Shown here one piece after another: positions 2,909 to 47,448 of a stretch of 64,000 bases of DNA. This DNA is from a virus: positions 1 to 64,000 of the IMG/VR virus record IMGVR_UViG_3300042898_002521; one strand, 5' to 3'. Under the pieces are notes generated by a model. It worked only from the letters and a program-made list of their open reading frames with translations, ran no database searches and was not told the DNA's origin. A program made the position numbers and the translations under genes. The first letter of the stretch is position 1. Every line of letters begins with the position of its first letter.

Positions 2909-3082
2909 ATGTTTGTAAACGGGTTCACCCTTTTACTCTGCCTAGTGTCTTTCATAGGTGGATACGGATACCGCGTGTTGGTTGTTAATTCACGCGAGTA
3001 TTACGATCAGCAACAACGCCAGCGACTACTGGCAAGTGACACGCCAATTCACGACAAACTATCTGAGGAGTGGGACTTCTAA
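2909..3082 (+). CDS. small membrane protein
   Basis: start re-assigned to ATG 2909 after AAAGGGA; N-terminal hydrophobic helix. Confidence 0.6.
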   Translation: MFVNGFTLLLCLVSFIGGYGYRVLVVNSREYYDQQQRQRLLASDTPIHDKLSEEWDF

Positions 3083-3246
3083 TGACTTACTACCGCAAAA
3101 TGACAGTAGTTCCAACACGCGCTGGAATTATGTACCAATGCTGTAACTGCGCGTTATCACTCTCGCCAGAGGAGGCAGATCAGCACCAAGAGGCTGACTG
3201 CCTAGCCTTGCAAGAGTTAGTGGATGCCGTAAGCGATCCACGATAA
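3082..3246 (+). CDS. hypothetical protein, 54 aa (CxxC)
   Basis: manual ORF MTYYRKMTVV...; TAATG coupling and GAGGAG RBS. Confidence 0.6.
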   Translation: MTYYRKMTVVPTRAGIMYQCCNCALSLSPEEADQHQEADCLALQELVDAVSDPR

Positions 3247-3251
3247 CCAAC

Positions 3252-3290
3252 TGGATAGCCAGCCCGACTTCCCTGCGGGTTGGCTATCCA
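3252..3290 (+). terminator. hairpin after early operon 1
   Basis: TGGATAGCCAGCCCG / CGGGTTGGCTATCCA inverted repeat. Confidence 0.6.
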
Positions 3291-3349
3291 CAGGTTATCC
3301 CCAAGCTGTGGATAAAGTTTTCCCCAGCCTGTGGATAACCTGTGGAAAA
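3284..3349. promoter_or_regulatory. array of six DnaA-box-like 9-mers
   Basis: CTATCCACA 3284, TTATCCCCA 3295, TGTGGATAA 3307, TTTTCCCCA 3318, TGTGGATAA 3330, TGTGGAAAA 3341; 11-12 bp period. Confidence 0.75.
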
Positions 3350-3422
3350 GTTTGTGTTGGCCGCCTTTGAGGGGGCCAATCGTCAGCTTTAAAGCTGACT
3401 CGGCCGAAGGCCGACACAAACA
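3350..3422. repeat. cloverleaf palindromic element copy A
   Basis: GTTTGTG...CACAAAC arms enclosing three hairpins incl. GTCAGCTTTAAAGCTGAC. Confidence 0.85.
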
Positions 3423-3430
3423 ACGGGGAG

Positions 3431-3491
3431 TGTGACGAGCGTCACATAAATTGTTATCGGGTTTGGTAGGAATGGGCTTATTCTAGAAACA
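3431..3491 (+). promoter_or_regulatory. early promoter 2: CRP-type box + conserved block + -10 TATTCT
   Basis: box 3431-3446; TTGTT 3451; -10 3479. Confidence 0.7.
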
Positions 3492-3524
3492 GTTGAGAAC
3501 CCGCTCAGCTAAAGAGAGGAAACT

Positions 3525-4043
3525 ATGTCTGAAATGACTAAAGTTGTTGCGTTAGCCATACTTGCTAATGACAACGGCAGGAAAGAAACAGCAATACCCC
3601 GCTTTACTGACCAAGTGAAGCGTGTTGCAAGGTTTAGCGAAGTCTTGGCTTCACTTGACCATAACTACACAGGTAAGTTTGATGTTAAGTCTGCATCTGC
3701 ACTAGCCGACATTCGTATCCGAGATGCGGTACTCCGCACCCTTTACGACTTGAAGCAAGAGGGTAACCTTGAACGGCTTACTAACTACCGCTTAACGCTT
3801 GAAACTTGGGCATCTAAGACAAGCGGTACTGCCCGTCTTGCTATCTTGGCACTTTGGGCAGGTTCGTATTGGCTCGAGGGTAATGATGCGCCAATTGAAG
3901 CCGTCCTTGAAACTGAGGACTTTGGCGAATACAGCCTTTGGCAACTGCTGGACATAGCCAAACGGCACAATGTCCCGTCCTTCGTTTGGGAGAACTCACT
4001 CAAGGAAACTCCCATTAACAAGTGTTTGCAGGGTGCGGGTTAG
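3525..4043 (+). CDS. DUF4192-like protein
   Basis: IRIRDAVL...ALWAGSYWLEGNDA...YSLWQLL resembles the actinobacterial DUF4192 C-terminal region. Confidence 0.6.
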   Translation: MSEMTKVVALAILANDNGRKETAIPRFTDQVKRVARFSEVLASLDHNYTGKFDVKSASALADIRIRDAVLRTLYDLKQEGNLERLTNYRLTLETWASKTSGTARLAILALWAGSYWLEGNDAPIEAVLETEDFGEYSLWQLLDIAKRHNVPSFVWENSLKETPINKCLQGAG

Positions 4044-4060
4044 CCCCGCAAGCAATAAGC

Positions 4061-4088
4061 CAAGCCAGCCCCTACGGGGGCTGGCTTG
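4061..4088 (+). terminator. GC-rich hairpin
   Basis: CAAGCCAGCCCC-TACG-GGGGCTGGCTTG. Confidence 0.65.
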
Positions 4089-4100
4089 TCGCTTGAAATT

Positions 4101-4173
4101 TGTTTGTGTTGGCGGCTTCAAGGCCGCCGCAGCAGCTGCAAGCTTAATCGGGCTTTAAAGCCCGACACAAACA
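4101..4173. repeat. cloverleaf palindromic element copy B
   Basis: TGTTTGTG...CACAAACA with internal GGCGGC-TTCAAG-GCCGCC and TCGGGCTTTAAAGCCCGA. Confidence 0.85.
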
Positions 4174-4182
4174 TCGGCCTAA

Positions 4183-4253
4183 TGTGGCGTAGATCACATA
4201 AATAAATGAGAGTTGTTATCGGGTTTGGTAAATCCCATGAGACTATAGAAACA
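4183..4253 (+). promoter_or_regulatory. early promoter 3: CRP-type box (1 mismatch) + conserved block + -10 GACTAT
   Basis: TGTGGcgtagaTCACA 4183-4198; TTGTT 4213; -10 4241. Confidence 0.65.
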
Positions 4254-4324
4254 GTTAAGCAACGGCTGGCGCGAGAGATTCTCACGTATTCAGGGGTTAA
4301 CGAGAGATAAGGGGTGATTGCCTT

Positions 4325-5341
4325 ATGGCACACGACTTAGAGATGAACGCCAATGGCGACGTCGCATTTGCACTGCGTGGCGCGCCTGCATGGCATGGTC
4401 TGGCTCAACACATCTTCGATGAAGATGAACACGTCACGACCTCGCAAATGTTGGATAGCGCACTGCTGTCTAACTGGGACGTCCGACTAGAGGACGTAAT
4501 CCTGCCCGAGGGTTACACCACGAAATCACCTAGTTTCATGGTGGTTCGGAACGACGTGCTCAACAACAACACGCCCGACGTGTTGGCTGTCGTTGGTGAT
4601 CGTTATCACACCTACCAGAATGAGGATTTATTCGCATTCGGAGATAACCTGCTCGACGGTGGAGGTTACTGGGAGTCTGCTGGTGCAATTCGCAACGGGC
4701 GCACAGTGTTCGGAAGCCTTAAGCTTGGCAAAGACATTGTGATTGACCCTGAGGGTATTGGTGACAAAACCGACACCTACCTACTGGTTACCACAAGCCA
4801 CGACGGATCGAGTGCAATTCAGGCAATGACTACGCCAGTACGGGTAGTTTGCCAGAATACGCTTAACATGGCTCTTGGCTATGGCACTAAGCAATCTTTC
4901 AAAGTTCGCCACACAGCGACTGCGCAAGATCGTGTGTCACAGGCTCGCGAGGCTCTTGGAATCTCGTTTGCCTACCTTGACCAATTCGAGGCCGAGGCCA
5001 ATGCGCTATTCCAGTCGGCTATCACTGACAAGCAATTTGGTGAAATCATCGAATCGCTGTATCCGACACCAGATCGCGCAACTGCTGGTAAAGCAGTTCT
5101 CACCAAGTACGACGATAAAGTCGACACTATGTGGGAATTGTGGCGTGGCCCTACCCAACTGGGTATCAAAGGCACAGGTTGGGGCGCGATGAATGCACTA
5201 ACCGAACGTGTCGATTACTACCGACTAGGGCGCAAGGGTACTAACGCTGGTATTCTCGCCAGTGCTAGTGGGTTCGACGCTCAAGTGAACGCCGAGAAGT
5301 CGCGCATTCGCAAGGCAGTGCTCGAGACTGCTGGTCTGTAA
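4325..5341 (+). CDS. DUF932/DUF945 phage-plasmid protein (TIGR03299-like)
   Basis: MAHDLE...PAWHGL; YLLVTTSHDGS; TPVRVVCQNTL; VRHT motifs. Confidence 0.85.
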   Translation: MAHDLEMNANGDVAFALRGAPAWHGLAQHIFDEDEHVTTSQMLDSALLSNWDVRLEDVILPEGYTTKSPSFMVVRNDVLNNNTPDVLAVVGDRYHTYQNEDLFAFGDNLLDGGGYWESAGAIRNGRTVFGSLKLGKDIVIDPEGIGDKTDTYLLVTTSHDGSSAIQAMTTPVRVVCQNTLNMALGYGTKQSFKVRHTATAQDRVSQAREALGISFAYLDQFEAEANALFQSAITDKQFGEIIESLYPTPDRATAGKAVLTKYDDKVDTMWELWRGPTQLGIKGTGWGAMNALTERVDYYRLGRKGTNAGILASASGFDAQVNAEKSRIRKAVLETAGL

Positions 5342-5344
5342 ACA

Positions 5345-5374
5345 ATAGTGGGGCAGGGCAACCTGCCCCACTAT
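5345..5374 (+). terminator. hairpin with GCAA tetraloop
   Basis: ATAGTGGGGCAGG-GCAA-CCTGCCCCACTAT. Confidence 0.65.
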
Positions 5375-5413
5375 CCACAGCCTGTGGATAAGTTGTGGAT
5401 AACCTGTGGATAA
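5371..5413. promoter_or_regulatory. array of four DnaA boxes
   Basis: CTATCCACA 5371; perfect TGTGGATAA at 5383, 5394, 5405. Confidence 0.8.
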
Positions 5414-5418
5414 CTTTT

Positions 5419-5486
5419 TGTTTGTGTTGGCTGGCTGGCTTCAAGGCCAGCTGCGCCTAATCGGCCTTTAAAGGCCGACACAAACA
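5419..5486. repeat. cloverleaf palindromic element copy C
   Basis: same arms; GCTGGC-TTCAAG-GCCAGC and TCGGCCTTTAAAGGCCGA. Confidence 0.85.
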
Positions 5487-5494
5487 ATCCGCTG

Positions 5495-5555
5495 TGTGAT
5501 CTATCTCACATAAATTGTTCTGGAGTCTGGCAAATACTAGGGCACAATAAGAGAG
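5495..5555 (+). promoter_or_regulatory. early promoter 4: CRP-type box + -10 CACAAT
   Basis: box 5495-5510; TTGTT 5515; -10 5543. Confidence 0.65.
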
Positions 5556-5583
5556 TGAGAGATTAGGAAAGAGAGGTGATTAA

Positions 5584-5790
5584 ATGAGTCACAAAGCAAG
5601 AATACCAATGATAGTAGAGGTTACTTACGGGGGAGATGATTTCCTGACTCTAGACGAGGTAGCAAATCTGATTAACCTGACGGTTACGTCACACGATACA
5701 GATGAGCTCGACGTCTTGAATTATCATTGTGAAGCAACCTACACTGTCGATCAAGGCAGTGTGCGCCCACCTCGGGGAATCAAGGTCTAA
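5584..5790 (+). CDS. hypothetical protein
   Basis: ORF track; GAGGTGA RBS. Confidence 0.7.
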   Translation: MSHKARIPMIVEVTYGGDDFLTLDEVANLINLTVTSHDTDELDVLNYHCEATYTVDQGSVRPPRGIKV

Positions 5791-6636: not shown

Positions 6637-6683
6637 GAGTGGCTACCAGTCCTGAGAGGCTGGTAGCCACTCTGCTTTTTTTT
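6637..6683 (+). terminator. intrinsic terminator
   Basis: GAGTGGCTACCAG...CTGGTAGCCACTC followed by T-run. Confidence 0.8.
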
Positions 6684-7794: not shown

Positions 7795-7834
7795 CCCCGA
7801 GGTTGCCGAACTTGGTAGCCTCGGGGCTTTTTTT
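7795..7834 (+). terminator. intrinsic terminator
   Basis: CCCCGAGG...CCTCGGGG + T-run. Confidence 0.8.
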
Positions 7835-14591: not shown

Positions 14592-14797
14592 TGAGAACGG
14601 CACTGTGGATAATTGCGTTTGCCCAGATGTATAACATTGTAGAGGCTTGGGTCTGGGCAATACATTGGAGACTCAAAGGAAAGAAAAAGTTTGAGGAGCG
14701 AATGAAAGACCGAGATCGTTCAACGGATTTAGAAAGTTTATTGGCTCTTTACAGCAACGACATTGACAAGCTTGAGAAGAGAAAAAATGGAAAGTAA
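14591..14797 (+). CDS. small membrane protein
   Basis: N-terminal hydrophobic segment; GAGGAG RBS. Confidence 0.65.
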   Translation: MRTALWIIAFAQMYNIVEAWVWAIHWRLKGKKKFEERMKDRDRSTDLESLLALYSNDIDKLEKRKNGK

Positions 14798-31099: not shown

Positions 31100-31419
31100 T
31101 TTTTTTTACCACTTTCTACCCAGTCTTTCAGGGTCACTCCGTTACGTTCAGCTTTGCGTTTTAACGCATTTCTTTCTCTATGGCTTAGCCCACCCCAAAT
31201 ACCATACTGCTCGTTCATAGTTTCTGAGTACATCAAACACTCTTTACGAACAGGGCATTCAGGACGACCGTCTCTACCAAAGCATATTCCTTTAGAAACA
31301 TCAGCAATAGATTTGTAAAGTTCTTTTTCTCTGGGTGGAAACCATAGCTCCGTATCCATACCTTTACATTTAGCGTCTGCGCGCCAGTTCTCTACGTCTA
31401 AGGGGTCTCGCACGAACAC
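31096..31419 (-). CDS. whiB: WhiB-family transcription factor
   Basis: WRADAKC..D.ELWFP...C..CPVRKECL...YGIWGGLS.RER. Confidence 0.9.
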   Translation of the reverse strand: MFVRDPLDVENWRADAKCKGMDTELWFPPREKELYKSIADVSKGICFGRDGRPECPVRKECLMYSETMNEQYGIWGGLSHRERNALKRKAERNGVTLKDWVESGKKK

Positions 31420-39964: not shown

Positions 39965-40029
39965 TGCCAGTTCTCTCCTAAGGGCAATACATAAAGTTTA
40001 CCCGAAGAAAGAATAATAATCTTGGCTTG

Positions 40030-40101
40030 CTCCCCGCCGTGGACTTGAACCACGAACATTTCGATTAACAGTCGAACGCTCTGCCATTGAGCTAGCAGGG
40101 A
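40030..40101 (-). tRNA. tRNA-Asn (GTT)
   Basis: TCCCTGC acceptor, TAGCTCAATGGCAGAGC D arm, CT-GTT-AA loop, GGTTCAAGTCC T arm. Confidence 0.92.
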
Positions 40102-40105
40102 TTAG

Positions 40106-40184
40106 TGGAGCAGTCGAGAGTCGAACTCGATTCCTAACATTTCCGACATGCGGAGTTAATGCCAGTCGATACCAAATCTGCCCC
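40106..40184 (-). ncRNA. tmRNA-like RNA reduced to the tRNA-like domain (no tag ORF)
   Basis: GGGGCAG/CUGCUCC-A acceptor with G3:U; stemless D loop ..GGUAUCGAC; helix 2a; GAA linker; T arm UCGAG-UUCGACU-CUCGA. Confidence 0.75.
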
Positions 40185-42789: not shown

Positions 42790-43716
42790 TTAGAGACTAG
42801 TTTTATATCGAATTGAATGTCTAGCAGATTCCAAACCAAGGAGTACCTCGGTTTTGCTCATGCCACCAACATCCTTCATATCAGTACCAGAGTAGTCAAA
42901 GAACCAAGCTTCAAAGTTTTGAGTCTTAGTTAGCTGTGCCAGTTTAAAAGAAGCTGACGTACCAGCCTCATCGGAATCTAACGCCATTACAATTCTATCA
43001 GCGGAACGTATGTATTTCAGTTGAATGTCTGAAATTAATGCCCCATAGACAGCTACTCCACCAGGTATTCCTATAGACGCAAGCCGTACAACGTCTAGTG
43101 GGGACTCTACAACTATCATGTCGCCATCTGTGTACTGCTGAAACCCAAATAATCCGTTGGACTTCTTTACCCCCACAGGGTAATTTCGGAAGTGCCTTCC
43201 AGTAAAGGCTTTAACTTGCCAGCCTTGCAGGTTACCTGTTTGAGGGTCTCTAATAGGAATGATCCAGCTTTCAGTAGATCGTTCCCACCGTAAACCAAAC
43301 TGCTGAGCAGCAGCTAGTGTCAACCCACGAGCTTGCAAGGCATGCTCTGGAGGGTCTGTAAAAGCTGCTAGAGAGGCTTCTGAAATGTAAACCAACTCTT
43401 CAAAAATTTCTTTGGGTTTACTAATTGCTCGCTCAAAAGCATCCATAAGTTCTCCGCCACTAGACAACCAAGCCTTAGCATCGTCGTAGTTTAATTCACG
43501 CAAAGTTGCTGTAAGAGAAATGATGTTACCGCGGTACTCGCACGAGAAACAGATGTGAGCTCCAGTATCGGCGTTTATATACCAAGAAGGATTGCGGTCT
43601 GCTTTCCCTGTGCGCTGTTCATGCATGGGGCAAAACCCTTGTATCTCGTTTCCACGAGAACCTACATGCTCAATACCTAAGTCGTCTAAGACGCGCTCCA
43701 TTTCATCTATGGTCAC
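42790..43716 (-). CDS. DNA primase (CHC2 zinc finger + Toprim)
   Basis: CPMH..CFSC; VVESPLD; LDSDEAG; KDVG. Confidence 0.85.
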   Translation of the reverse strand: MTIDEMERVLDDLGIEHVGSRGNEIQGFCPMHEQRTGKADRNPSWYINADTGAHICFSCEYRGNIISLTATLRELNYDDAKAWLSSGGELMDAFERAISKPKEIFEELVYISEASLAAFTDPPEHALQARGLTLAAAQQFGLRWERSTESWIIPIRDPQTGNLQGWQVKAFTGRHFRNYPVGVKKSNGLFGFQQYTDGDMIVVESPLDVVRLASIGIPGGVAVYGALISDIQLKYIRSADRIVMALDSDEAGTSASFKLAQLTKTQNFEAWFFDYSGTDMKDVGGMSKTEVLLGLESARHSIRYKTSL

Positions 43717-44942
43717 ATGTCATCACTACTAATCTCACGGAACTCACCTGTGTTCCAATCCCACACTAATGAAACCTCTAAAGGGCCACAGTTACGGCTA
43801 GCCATAACCTTTAACAACCTAGTGTCGTCTACGTTTTCATCCTCACGTTGCAAACCAAATACAACATCAGCATCTTGAAAAAACGAGGAGGAGTAACCAA
43901 TAGAGTCTACTGTTACGTTACCCTTACGCATCTTCCATCCCAAAGCCTGAGTGGTAATAACAATTGGAATCTGATGCTTCTGTGCAAGACGCTTAAGACT
44001 ACGTGTGATGTTAGTAAGAGCTAAAGCAGTGTTTGCTTCTCCAGACTGCTCATCCATCATTAAGTACACACCGTCAATAAATAAAACGTTAGGCTGCAAC
44101 TGCTGAATCTTATTTGATATTCCAGAAACTACGGATGCTCCTGCTGAGTCGGTCAACCAAAACTTATGTTGAAGCATTGTCATACCGCGAAGCTTTGCTT
44201 GGTACCGCGCTTCTTCCTCTGAGGTAAGAGTTCCTGTGGTTAGGCGGTGGTGTGAGATACGAGCACGCATAGCATCGTAACGAGTAATTTGTTCTTGGTT
44301 ACTCATTTCAAATGATTGAAAAACAGGAACCTTTCCACCACTATGAATGTTATGAGCCATCTGTAATGCAAGAGTTGACTTACCAGTTTTAGGTGGAGCA
44401 ACAATTACAATCAGCTGACCTGGCTGTAGACCGCTGGTTGCTTGATCAATAGTACTAAACCCTGTTGCCATTCCACGAAGACCTCCTGGAAGGTTCTTAC
44501 GCTCAAGGTACTCTTCCCAACGCTGATCAGTGTTCTGGGTAATATCAATGTCACTAACCGCGTGAAATCCATTGTCGTCAAGTGTGGAAAACCCGCTTTG
44601 TAAAATAGATACAGCGTTTTCGTGGTTACCAAACTTTTCAATCTCTTCAATTGCTTTTCGAATAGAGTTATTAACAATAGCTTTACGTTGGGCTTTGACT
44701 ACTTCATCTACTAAAAAATCAAGAGAGTCGCTAACTTCAACAAGAGCGTACGTAGGAAAATTATCTTTAATAACTTCTGTGCTAGGAACTTCATTGTAAT
44801 TGGTGTAATGGTTCCTGACAAAAGACCATACTCTTCGGTCCTCATTGTTTGAAAACCAGGGCTCGGACACGCCGCGCTCAAGCAGAAAACTAATGCTTCG
44901 TTCGTTTAATGCTCGGTTTAGTAGTAGGTTTTCGTAGTTCAT
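43713..44942 (-). CDS. dnaB: DnaB-like replicative helicase
   Basis: TGFSTID..TSGLQPGQL, APPKTGKS, SFEMS, FIDG, QDAD. Confidence 0.88.
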   Translation of the reverse strand: MNYENLLLNRALNERSISFLLERGVSEPWFSNNEDRRVWSFVRNHYTNYNEVPSTEVIKDNFPTYALVEVSDSLDFLVDEVVKAQRKAIVNNSIRKAIEEIEKFGNHENAVSILQSGFSTLDDNGFHAVSDIDITQNTDQRWEEYLERKNLPGGLRGMATGFSTIDQATSGLQPGQLIVIVAPPKTGKSTLALQMAHNIHSGGKVPVFQSFEMSNQEQITRYDAMRARISHHRLTTGTLTSEEEARYQAKLRGMTMLQHKFWLTDSAGASVVSGISNKIQQLQPNVLFIDGVYLMMDEQSGEANTALALTNITRSLKRLAQKHQIPIVITTQALGWKMRKGNVTVDSIGYSSSFFQDADVVFGLQREDENVDDTRLLKVMASRNCGPLEVSLVWDWNTGEFREISSDDM

Positions 44943-44951
44943 CTGTTCCCC

Positions 44952-45347
44952 TTAAAAGTCCAATCCTAAGCGACCATACATTAGTTGGTGCTCTGGGTCA
45001 ATTACGCCGATTACTTCTGGTCTGTATGGTAAGTCTGCAACTAACTTCTTTGGAGAAGCGTAATGGTTATAGTACCTGAACGGGTTGTTGCCTGCCCTAT
45101 CAATTTTGTTAAACAAGATTTCAAGTTCAGAATCTTTGTACTCAAATGAAACTAGCTCAAGTGTTATCCCTGCACGAGTAGTGTACAAGTAAAACTTGTT
45201 TAAAAGAAACTTGTCAAACCCAATCTCTTCAGACTTAACATTAAATATTTTTAATTTCTTTTCTATTACGGGTACCTTGATAAATATTAAATTAGCATTT
45301 ACAAGTACACGCCGTGGCATGTCATTGCTTATGTCCCCTTTATACAT
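44952..45347 (-). CDS. hypothetical protein
   Basis: ORF track. Confidence 0.7.
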   Translation of the reverse strand: MYKGDISNDMPRRVLVNANLIFIKVPVIEKKLKIFNVKSEEIGFDKFLLNKFYLYTTRAGITLELVSFEYKDSELEILFNKIDRAGNNPFRYYNHYASPKKLVADLPYRPEVIGVIDPEHQLMYGRLGLDF

Positions 45348-45350
45348 GGT

Positions 45351-45662
45351 TTAACAAACCTCTATTTTTCCAAATTTAATAATGAACTTTCGCAGTTCTT
45401 CTGAAGACTCGTGAGCCCTATCAGTTTCTTCATCAGTTACTTCTGTAGAAATTTGTAATGGGTAAGTACCGTGGTTTTGTTTGACGCGTGAGGTTACAAA
45501 TTTAGTATGCTTGCACGTCCCACGTCCAGCGTATCCTGGACAAGTGCAGATAAAGTTTCTATCTCTGTTAATACTTACTTCAAAAATACCTGGGCCTGGG
45601 GTGCCTGAACCGCCTAAGAAAATCTGAACTAACTTGGTGTCTTCCATAACTCCCTCGCTCAT
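45351..45662 (-). CDS. SWIM zinc-finger protein
   Basis: CTCPG...CKH. Confidence 0.7.
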   Translation of the reverse strand: MSEGVMEDTKLVQIFLGGSGTPGPGIFEVSINRDRNFICTCPGYAGRGTCKHTKFVTSRVKQNHGTYPLQISTEVTDEETDRAHESSEELRKFIIKFGKIEVC

Positions 45663-46354
45663 TTTTTTCGTAAGTCTCCCTTAGTAGATTTTAGTTCAAT
45701 TGTGGCAAAAGCTTCGTGTATAAACGACCCAGTTGCTTCACCATACGCAGCGGACCAAGCATCTATGGGAAGATTTGTGGTAACTATGGTGGGAAGTCCT
45801 AGGTTAAATCTGGTACGCAAAATATGATGAAGCAAGTTCTTGTTCCAGCCACTGCCTGATACATGCTCTTTACCTACGTCATCAATGACTAGTACTCGAA
45901 TGTTATATGCATCGTCTTCGCACTCACCGTGCATACCTAAAAACAAACGCTCTTGCTCATCGGTTTTATCTGATCCCATCAATGCGCCTTTAAGTTCAAT
46001 AATGTCGTTATAAGTAGCAAAGTGACATGGCTTTACAAGAACTCTACCTTTGTTTACAGCAAAATCTTCTAAATCAAATGTCCGCATCATCTCTTGGATA
46101 ACCGCCAAAGAAAGAGTAGTCTTCCCATGCCCTGGCTCCCCAACAAGTAACAAGCCTTTGCCACAAATAGGTTTACCATCTGCACGGATTACGTCTCCAG
46201 ACTTAACCTTGCGTATCCAATTAGATACAAGTTTTAAGTCTTGCGCAGATACCTCTTTGCAGTCTGATAACTCCCAGCCCCTGCGGTTTGAAGGGACGTT
46301 AGCAATAGTTAACCAGGACTTACGTCGCACAGGTAACTCGCTAACATTAATCAT
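45659..46354 (-). CDS. DnaC/IstB-like AAA+ helicase loader
   Basis: GEPGHGKT, LVIDDVGKE, R.N..LPTIVTTNL. Confidence 0.85.
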   Translation of the reverse strand: MINVSELPVRRKSWLTIANVPSNRRGWELSDCKEVSAQDLKLVSNWIRKVKSGDVIRADGKPICGKGLLLVGEPGHGKTTLSLAVIQEMMRTFDLEDFAVNKGRVLVKPCHFATYNDIIELKGALMGSDKTDEQERLFLGMHGECEDDAYNIRVLVIDDVGKEHVSGSGWNKNLLHHILRTRFNLGLPTIVTTNLPIDAWSAAYGEATGSFIHEAFATIELKSTKGDLRKK

Positions 46355-46515: not shown

Positions 46516-47448
46516 TTACTCACTTAACCACTCCTGTGACTTAGCAGCTTGTAAAGCTGATGTTTCTTTTTCCTCTGGTGTTTGTACCATACGTTTTGCC
46601 TGTACTGCAAGTTCGGGTGAACGAGTAATAAACAGTTTCCACATATGCTCTCCGTCTTCGTACTTTTCAAACTTTGTAGTTTCAAAGAATAAATCTAACA
46701 TCTTGTACTCAGTCTCACCATCAGTCTGATGCACCATTCGCATTTTAGCAAATGCGCCTGTAATCCTGCGTACGGTAATGTTGTTTTTAATATGAAAATA
46801 CCGAGTTAAACGATCCATAAATTCATAAGCAACTTCGTTACTACCCCATTTTTCAACTGCAAGATCGTGACGAGAGCCTAACTTAGCCCTTTTCGTAGAA
46901 GTAAAAGTTGTCTGAGACTCCGCCATCTTAGCATCCCGTAGTTTACGCCGTTCTTCTTTACCGTCCTGAGTGTAATCATCTTCTGACTCATTTGCGTTAA
47001 AAAAATGATACGGCATTTCCTTCTCCTCTACCAAGATGTTAAATGTCTTGTCTTCGTTACGAGGGTTTCCCCTCGTAACTTCTTTACTAGTTATACTAGT
47101 TATATTATTAGGATTAATAAGCTGGTTCCCACTTAAAAGGACGACGGGTTTTCCGACCCCCGACCCCCACTCCGCAGTCGGATTATCCGACCGCGGCAAC
47201 CAGTCTCTGATGTACATCCAACCAAGGTCGGTAATGTCTTCAAAGTTGTTCCATTGTTTTTGCGGCCCTGTTTGATAGCTGCCTCTTTTGATCATGCCCG
47301 CTTCCTCAAGCTCCTTTAAAGCCCCGCTCCAATAGTCTCTACCGAACCCTGGAAAGGCCTCCATAAGCCCAGGCCTGGTCATGCGAACCTTACCTGTAGC
47401 TCCTGCCATAAGGGCAACTAGTGCCTTAGGCGATAACATGCTTATCAT
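46516..47448 (-). CDS. putative replication initiator (N-terminal wHTH)
   Basis: GRD..SGALKELEEAG.I.R wHTH; upstream of DnaC-like loader; internal iteron-like/AT-rich DNA. Confidence 0.6.
   Translation of the reverse strand: MISMLSPKALVALMAGATGKVRMTRPGLMEAFPGFGRDYWSGALKELEEAGMIKRGSYQTGPQKQWNNFEDITDLGWMYIRDWLPRSDNPTAEWGSGVGKPVVLLSGNQLINPNNITSITSKEVTRGNPRNEDKTFNILVEEKEMPYHFFNANESEDDYTQDGKEERRKLRDAKMAESQTTFTSTKRAKLGSRHDLAVEKWGSNEVAYEFMDRLTRYFHIKNNITVRRITGAFAKMRMVHQTDGETEYKMLDLFFETTKFEKYEDGEHMWKLFITRSPELAVQAKRMVQTPEEKETSALQAAKSQEWLSE

Follow-up and report, generated by a model that had tools for sequence, protein, structure and literature searches.

Phased DnaA-box arrays at early-cassette boundaries of a putative freshwater actinophage and their possible part in early transcription

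The first 64,000 nucleotides (nt) of IMG/VR virus record IMGVR_UViG_3300042898_002521, referred to here as the window, carry two clusters of 9-nt words of the DnaA-box type, array 1 with six words and array 2 with four, at boundaries between early gene cassettes. The record consists of a single linear contig, 87,548 base pairs (bp) long, with 43.7% GC and an estimated completeness of ~91%, and near-identical copies of the phage occur in contigs of several lake-water metagenomes. As judged by its gene content, the phage is an actinophage, because it encodes two WhiB proteins, its PolA is closest to those of Streptomyces phages of the BRock/Alone3 type (39% identity), and it is syntenic with Streptomyces phage BRock, in which small early genes on the + strand are followed by a - strand block that opens with a queuine tRNA-ribosyltransferase gene. 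A blastn search with positions 3000-5700 against 50,697 phage records gave zero matches. The features of the locus and of the genome that bear on the arrays are collected in Table 1, where R denotes TTATCCACA and F denotes TGTGGATAA, both read on the + strand.

Table 1. Features of the phage and of actinobacterial comparison loci. Positions are those of the window or the phage record unless a locus label precedes them.
Feature	Position	Strand or box orientation	Remarks
Hairpin closing the upstream cassette (stop codon 3244-3246)	3252-3290	+	-34 kcal/mol, z -7.5; no T-run
Array 1, six 9-mers, R R F R F F	3284-3349		two perfect, three with one mismatch, one with two
Array 1 box 1, CTATCCACA	3284-3292	R	
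Array 1 box 2, TTATCCCCA	3295-3303	R	
Array 1 box 3, TGTGGATAA	3307-3315	F	perfect
Array 1 box 4, TTTTCCCCA	3318-3326	R	two mismatches to strict consensus, one to TT[A/T]TNCACA
Array 1 box 5, TGTGGATAA	3330-3338	F	perfect
Array 1 box 6, TGTGGAAAA	3341-3349	F	
Cloverleaf copy 1	3350-3421		5' arm abutted by last box of array 1
CRP/GlxR-type palindrome TGTGA-N6-TCACA	3431-3446		promoter slot; a single DnaA box there in many relatives
Promoter word TTGTTATCGGGTTTGG and likely -10 TATTCT (3479-3484) for the cassette that begins at 3525	3451-3484	+	inferred from five-copy alignment
Early gene, 172 amino acids, weak DUF4192-like match	3525-4043	+	downstream of array 1
DUF932 gene, 338 amino acids	4325-5341	+	upstream of array 2; query for related loci
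Hairpin past the DUF932 stop codon	5345-5374	+	-28 kcal/mol, z -5.6; T-run at 5415-5419, behind array 2
Array 2, four 9-mers, R F F F	5371-5413		three perfect
Array 2 box 1, CTATCCACA	5371-5379	R	
Array 2 boxes 2-4, TGTGGATAA	starts 5383, 5394, 5405	F	all perfect
Cloverleaf copy 3	5420-5485		directly behind array 2
CRP/GlxR-type palindrome of the next early promoter	5495-5510		
Lone perfect box within a small open reading frame	14604-14612	+	from genome-wide box count
WhiB-family gene 1	31162-31386	-	G000; replication/recombination block
Primase gene	42790-43716	-	replisome block 42790-46354
DnaB gene	43713-44942	-	replisome block 42790-46354
DnaC-like loader gene	45659-46354	-	replisome block 42790-46354
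Gene for 310-amino-acid protein directly upstream of the loader	46516-47448	-	lead to lambda-O/HTH_36-type initiator
WhiB-family gene 2	82071-82280	+	G000; outside the window
dnaA-dnaN spacer arrays	L207:1454-1483; L208:1480-1509; L209:1501-1530		

The start-to-start spacings of the boxes are 11, 12, 11, 12 and 11 bp in array 1 (gaps of 2, 3, 2, 3 and 2 bp) and 12, 11 and 11 bp in array 2 (gaps of 3, 2 and 2 bp). The gap is 3 bp at each convergent (R-to-F) junction and 2 bp elsewhere, and all eight gaps therefore measure 2-3 bp. When compared with TTATCCACA or TT[A/T]TNCACA, five of the ten boxes are perfect, four have one mismatch and one has two. An earlier, sequence-only reading of the window had described six boxes in the first cluster and four in the second, five of them perfect, repeating every 11-12 bp and with each array starting in the 3' arm of a hairpin, and re-reading of the sequence together with folding of both hairpins (Table 1) bears this description out. 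The count of boxes against expectation that it had proposed gave six perfect boxes in the window, as compared with 0.47 expected (standard deviation 0.63), and none of 100 shuffled sequences reached six. The entire 87.5-kb genome also contains six, the sixth of which stands alone at 14604 and is probably a chance occurrence outside the array system. Array 2 is identical in contigs from other lake samples.

Over the interval that holds array 2 (window 5364-5445), the summed contig depth in three lake metagenomes (X2-X4) is ~10 times that of the neighbouring intervals, and the contigs concerned have unrelated flanks. It follows that phased TGTGGATAA arrays are common among the other genomes of those lakes.

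The early region at 2.1-8.5 kb is composed of a repeated module consisting of a hairpin, in places an array, a cloverleaf-type palindrome, a TGTGA-N6-TCACA box and a promoter. The cloverleaf is an inverted repeat (GTTTGTGTTGGC...GCCGACACAAAC) of 66-90 bp present in five copies, starting at 3350, 4102, 5420, 6684 and 7835, and three of the five have no array. The first box shares 6-7 nt (array 1) or 4 nt (array 2) with the 3' arm of the preceding hairpin. Canonical terminators on the + strand, in which a hairpin is followed directly by a T-run, occur in the region only at 6637-6672 and 7795-7826, and neither of the hairpins at 3252-3290 and 5345-5374 is an intrinsic terminator in the sense of a GC-rich hairpin with a T-run within 0-2 nt. 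The arrays lie with the hairpin stem on one side and the cloverleaf on the other, a position in which sister junctions have the T-run of the terminator. The junction at 4061-4088 (window 4043-4325) has a strong hairpin with neither T-run nor array and is the sole boundary in the phage that fits neither pattern.

Eight TGTGA-N6-TCACA palindromes are present in the window, all between 2186 and 8439, as compared with 1.9 expected. The copies at 2380 and 4183 have an extra 10 nt (ataagtgaga and ataaatgaga, respectively) ahead of the TTGTTATCGGG word. In the five-copy alignment, the TTGTTATCGGGTTTGG word is kept across copies and is followed by a TAnnnT hexamer resembling a -10 element. A promoter core of the PafBC type (RecA-NDp) was also considered; the distance from the TTATCGGG word to the likely -10 element is ~16 nt, no obvious fit was seen by eye, and this assignment was not adopted.

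With the DUF932 gene as query, 80 related IMG/VR loci were obtained. Perfect boxes number 199 across 823 kb of their early regions, ~24 times as many as composition predicts. Two relatives with complete genomes (98 and 96 kb) have their perfect boxes only in an early region of 6-7 kb, where 9 of 10 and 6 of 7, respectively, lie on one strand; a reversed control word was found 0-2 times. Two architectures are seen among the loci. In the first, represented by ~20 loci, one F-oriented perfect box lies just past the cloverleaf (56 of 93 junctions) and starts ~25 nt upstream of a TTGCAt-N17-TAnnnT promoter, accompanied by a lineage-specific second word, which is cTAGGTTAACa, cTTTCTGAG or AAATCGTTAT...TGTTATC. 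In the second, groups of 2-6 boxes, always R..R then F..F, lie just ahead of the cloverleaf, and this arrangement is shared by the phage described here, L001 (95% identity), L077 (94%), L006 (59%, at three successive junctions), L003 (59%) and L030. The ortholog of the 172-amino-acid early gene in L081, which is 67% identical, is likewise preceded by an array. The expectation of the sequence-only reading that the boxes should recur in related phages is thus borne out for close and for some distant relatives, though the distribution is patchy.

The single DnaA box of the relatives and the TGTGA-N6-TCACA box of this phage are in register, with TGTG 17 nt from a shared AAAT[CT]GTTAT. The conserved word is slightly longer than the 9-mer and reads CC-TGTGGATAA-CT. 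The 9-mer itself is invariant across lineages in which the DUF932 proteins are only 50-59% identical and the other promoter words have diverged, as would be expected if it were read by a conserved host protein and not by a co-evolving phage regulator. The box was not taken to be a -35 or -10 element, as the relatives have a separate TTGCAt-N17-TAnnnT promoter ~25 nt downstream, nor to be a CRP half-site, as the single-box promoters have no second half-site at N6.

Two further observations concern the relatives. After each cloverleaf of L006 (600-700, 1870-1930 and 2820-2880), the promoter slot is filled by tandem CCTGAGAGTTA-like words, which represent a third interchangeable promoter word. 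In L035 (5180-5560), an AT-rich non-coding stretch of ~400 bp located 4-5 kb past the DUF932 gene includes approximately nine DnaA boxes in close direct or convergent pairs with 2-3 bp gaps, with a near-consensus TTGACA-N17-TATAGT promoter in their midst; the same type of stretch is present in L034, L036-L038, L040, L042, L043 and L045 and looks more like an origin or a hub than anything in the window.

As well as sequence can show, the 9-mers of the arrays are DnaA boxes, the identity given to them by the sequence-only reading. They include the perfect 9-mer, and the variants TTTTCCACA, TTATCCCCA and CTATCCACA are of the same one-mismatch kinds as those listed for T5-like phages. No Bac_DnaA_C domain was found in the phage proteins, and the phage thus has no DnaA DNA-binding domain of its own. 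Chromatin immunoprecipitation sequencing in Escherichia coli indicates that DnaA binds in vivo almost exclusively at box pairs 2 or 3 bp apart and that one added base pair in the gap abolishes binding (PMC11317965). Since the gaps in both arrays match this requirement, the arrays are regarded as putative cooperative DnaA sites.

Arrays of the same type are found next to dnaA in the genomes of plausible hosts. The triple direct array occurs across many phyla, with at least 120 species genomes containing it, a distribution that points to no single host, and it lies less than 1 kb from dnaA in two of five other bacterial genomes checked. A perfect direct pair is present in 8 of 401 sampled Actinomycetes genomes, and four of the eight are among the ~29 genomes of 1.0-1.5 Mb. 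Three of these actinobacterial genomes, 1.3-1.5 Mb in size (local GC 47%), have TGTGGATAA-NN-TGTGGATAA-N-TGTGGATAt in the dnaA-dnaN spacer, 50-70 bp downstream of the stop codon of dnaA; opposed boxes follow after another ~100 bp, still ahead of dnaN. One of the three (L209) has an additional perfect pair upstream of dnaA, at 11-31. Streamlined freshwater actinobacteria are the plausible host type.

The arrays may act as cooperative platforms for host DnaA at early-cassette boundaries and so affect early transcription, an explanation that is favoured tentatively and placed at somewhat less than an even chance. From the arrangement of the sites, it is most likely that the arrays tie early transcription to host DnaA rather than being a replication origin. 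A transcriptional role is put first because the boxes are embedded in a transcription cassette, with a position and orientation relative to promoters that are fixed across the family, and because the DnaA box is interchangeable with the CRP-type site and the promoter-proximal boxes of the arrays are in the F orientation like the single boxes. The sequence-only reading had offered three functions for the arrays, namely titration of host DnaA, a host-dependent origin for the first round of replication, and coupling of early promoters to the state of the cell cycle. Coupling to the state of the cell fits best, given a word that early cassettes use family-wide and that, in many relatives, is present once at each early promoter, in a fixed slot ~25 nt before the -35 element.

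In the proposed arrangement, DnaA protomers would line up head-to-tail along the direct boxes with 2-bp gaps and meet face to face at the convergent junction with its 3-bp gap, which would place a DnaA complex between the upstream terminator stem on one side and the next cassette's cloverleaf and promoter on the other. This complex could stop or pause polymerase leaving the upstream cassette, in place of the missing U-run, or it could act on the downstream promoter, with the nearest boxes oriented as are the single promoter boxes of the relatives. In either case, early expression would follow the level of active DnaA in the host and hence report on replication and growth, and the CRP-type boxes at those promoters could provide a parallel report of the host cyclic AMP (cAMP) state. 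There is precedent for DnaA as an activator or repressor of transcription and as a roadblock to elongation (PMC8203912 and references in PMC11317965), and DnaA stimulates transcription in phage lambda (Szalewska-Palasz et al. 1998, as cited in PMC8203912).

Among 69 distinct cloverleaf junctions of the family, a canonical terminator is present in none of the 9 with arrays, as compared with 51 of the 60 without (Fisher p ~9e-7). However, these junctions are related by descent and may represent only five independent events, and the association arises in part by construction, as an array necessarily splits the stem from the T-run. The design is nonetheless consistent, with DnaA boxes found where a U-run would be expected. 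In L006, two arrays come after the stop codon, and neither has an evident terminator associated with it.

Several further points weigh against a transcriptional platform. The arrays lie ~130 bp upstream of the likely -10 element with a 70-bp palindrome between, which is far for a classical activator, and only 2 of the ~7 early promoters of this phage have an array. A box within 260 nt downstream of the DUF932 gene was found in 19 of the 70 relatives with an intact flank, leaving 51 of 70 with none, and the first 30 kb of the cultured relative BRock contains neither TTATCCACA nor TTGTCCACA, the DnaA box preferred by high-GC actinobacteria. The box is hence a dispensable feature. A roadblock that begins within the 3' arm would halt polymerase with part of the hairpin still untranscribed, and simple replacement of the U-run is therefore mechanistically uncertain. 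The host, moreover, is known by inference.

A more specific form of the transcriptional explanation is a boundary switch gated by DnaA, in which the array stands in place of the U-run and its occupancy by DnaA sets whether cassettes are insulated or read through. Extrusion of the cloverleaf could then bring the array beside the promoter. Judged from the sequence, such a switch is unlikely. If it were real, the early region, with its slot interchangeable between CRP-type and DnaA sites, would be a programmable reader of host master regulators, and the switch would represent a class of phage control element without described counterpart.

It is also possible, though less probable than a boundary switch, that the likeness to DnaA boxes is coincidental and that the sites belong to another phage or host regulator, such as a dimer on the 21-bp palindrome TTATCCACA-N3-TGTGGATAA. 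Each array does include near-palindromes of 9+3+9 bp, and the extension of the conserved word slightly past the 9-mer would be consistent with a different reader. However, the match to the DnaA box is exact and invariant across diverged lineages, where the operator of a phage regulator would drift. In most members of the family the boxes stand singly and form no palindrome, and array 2 consists mainly of direct repeats. The one-mismatch variants belong to the kinds listed for T5-like phages, and the identical type of array adjoins dnaA in genomes of the likely host type. In addition, early promoters must work ahead of phage protein synthesis.

An origin dependent on host DnaA ranks lower again. 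The arrays would open adjacent DNA, perhaps the cloverleaf, and the DnaC-like loader would place the phage DnaB for the first round of replication. The arrays indeed share their geometry with the sub-arrays of origins, among them origins of the likely host lineage, and they adjoin a structure-prone palindrome. The phage encodes a primase, DnaB, a DnaC-like loader, PolA and RecA on the opposite strand ~40 kb from the arrays, so the helicase, loader and primase required are available. The replisome genes recognised by the sequence-only reading were therefore found, with the exception that its initiator-like gene is at present only a language-model lead. This lead concerns the 310-amino-acid protein encoded directly upstream of the loader, which ESM-Atlas relates to Phage_rep_O/HTH_36 (feature score 0.95-0.96), and sequence searches of Pfam, PHROG and PDB with this protein returned no match; it is a probable O-type initiator. 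No iteron-type origin was detected at 44.8-48.3 kb, around the replication genes, and an AT-rich stretch at 45.18-45.31 kb, considered as the phage's own origin, was rejected because it is coding. Examination of iterons and AT-rich stretches thus gave no candidate for an alternative phage origin.

Against an origin at the arrays, no AT-rich unwinding element lies beside either of them, as 30-nt windows there reach at most 63% AT (genome mean 56%) and the AT content of the genome peaks elsewhere. An origin should occupy one locus, but two arrays are found 2 kb apart in this phage and three at successive gene junctions in L006, and the 8-10 dispersed single promoter boxes of the relatives cannot be origins. 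Three of the five cloverleaves have no array. The probable O-type initiator beside the loader, an arrangement as in lambda, is a further point against it. An origin is accordingly the weakest of the three functions put forward by the sequence-only reading, in view of the missing AT-rich element, the several arrays and the probable O-type initiator.

Less probable still is a decoy, in which multiplying phage arrays would soak up DnaA and either block rounds of host replication in the manner of datA or shift the DnaA regulon. Each genome copy provides ten close boxes of the type arrayed at the host origin, the binding capacity would grow with the phage copy number, and a host of 1.3-1.5 Mb can be expected to hold few DnaA molecules. 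A sponge, however, needs no set position, yet the boxes occupy precise slots with fixed orientation across the family. Ten sites per genome are a modest number, many relatives have no boxes, and datA of E. coli also requires an IHF site and works by stimulating ATP hydrolysis, not as a simple titration site. Titration would follow automatically from DnaA binding as the genome multiplies, though it would leave the placement of the boxes unexplained. The titration suggested by the sequence-only reading thus appears to be more a by-product than a design principle, given the fixed promoter positions of the single boxes in relatives.

The least probable explanation is a role in DNA entry or anchoring like that proposed for T5, in which the arrays and palindromes would enter first and membrane-associated DnaA would pause or position the incoming genome. 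T5-like phages have conserved box pairs with 3-bp gaps within inverted repeats of the terminal repeat that is transferred in the first step (10.1101/866236; T5 record), both phages have two clusters a few kb apart with the TTATCCCCA variant in common, relatives of the BE cluster have terminal repeats of ~10.6 kb (PMC12160451), and the BRock record begins just upstream of the early block, so that by synteny the arrays could be 1-3 kb from a genome end. Several points count against this explanation, as the T5 model is itself a hypothesis, the phage is represented by contigs only (with the linear record 91% complete), the T5 pairs differ in being direct with 3-bp gaps, BRock has no boxes, its deposited record shows no second copy of the early block at the right end, leaving the terminal-repeat analogy to rest on another BE phage only, and the single boxes at every promoter of the relatives fit transcription better.

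DnaA boxes at the origins of P1 and of plasmids flank Rep-protein iterons and do not form phased arrays at cassette boundaries. The closest known counterpart of the arrays is found in T5, where DnaA boxes in the pre-early region have been known since 1987 (Heusterspreute et al., as cited in Davison 2020, 10.1101/866236) and were compared across 25 T5-like phages in 2020 (10.1101/866236). T5, too, is a lytic siphovirus of large size that encodes replication genes, and it has consensus and one-mismatch boxes a few bp apart among inverted repeats or palindromes of the pre-early region, in two clusters a few kb apart, for which an origin was judged unlikely and the function is unproven. As in T5, the boxes described here lie in large inverted repeats of the early region, each array overlapping the arm of a hairpin on one side and adjoining a palindrome of 66-72 bp on the other. 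T5, however, has direct pairs with 3-bp gaps, whereas the arrays consist of 4-6 boxes with 2-bp gaps between direct and 3-bp gaps between convergent boxes. The host phylum and the phage lineage also differ, and the arrays lie at cassette boundaries near promoters, with the box of the relatives inside each early promoter.

The DnaA regulon of E. coli similarly includes box pairs with 2-3 bp gaps near promoters or in transcribed regions (Stringer, Fitzgerald and Wade 2024, PMC11317965; PMC8203912), but these concern cellular genes and two boxes, as compared with 4-6 boxes of mixed orientation placed in a virus between a terminator stem and a promoter. Arrays at chromosomal origins, including the actinobacterial dnaA-dnaN spacers, have direct perfect or near-perfect boxes with a 10-11 bp period and opposed boxes nearby, whereas the phage arrays have no adjoining unwinding element, are more than one per genome and lie inside transcription units. 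DARS and datA of E. coli are groups of 3-5 DnaA boxes outside the origin, and their target is DnaA itself (PMC6868365; PMC4585315). In the DARS core, as in array 2 (R F F(F)), a single box faces two direct ones, but the gap between the opposed DARS boxes I and II is 5 bp rather than the 3 bp of the phage arrays.

Recruitment of host DnaA by a mobile element for its own transcription is known from lambda pR/ori-lambda (Szalewska-Palasz et al. 1998, as cited in PMC8203912), where few boxes lie downstream of one promoter and no phased arrays occur at cassette boundaries. The modular layout recalls the PeSL cassettes of T4-type phages, in which many small early genes are framed by repeats made of a strong promoter and a stem-loop terminator, and these repeats provide the joints at which modules are shuffled (Arbiol et al. 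2010, PMC2839356). The PeSL repeats include no sites for host regulators, whereas the joints described here add DnaA-box arrays, a cloverleaf palindrome and CRP-type boxes. A full-text search of the literature found no paper that links DnaA boxes to early promoters of phages or to actinophages. Particular to this phage are the CRP-type box in the promoter slot, the grouping of 4-6 boxes into phased arrays on the cloverleaf's terminator side, and the replacement of the U-run.

Lytic phages are usually viewed as taking over the host with factors of their own. An abundant lineage of freshwater actinophages appears instead to write DnaA sites, and sites of the cAMP-regulator type in the same slot, into the controls of its first-expressed genes, and the arrays may offer a natural case in which DnaA sites stand in for one part of an intrinsic terminator. 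If DnaA binds them, the phage could sense the replication competence of a slow-growing, streamlined lake bacterium before committing itself, and its growing copy number would feed back both on host initiation and on phage early transcription. The long-unexplained boxes of T5 would then have a second, independent example in another phylum, which would open the role of DnaA on lytic phage DNA to comparison.

Rfam models gave no match in the early region, and the only matches were to a tRNA and a tmRNA-like sequence near 40.1 kb. There, a tRNA-Asn gene adjoins 82 nt that match the tmRNA model (RF00023, 61.7 bits) at its ends, without the tag-coding part (window 40029-40184).

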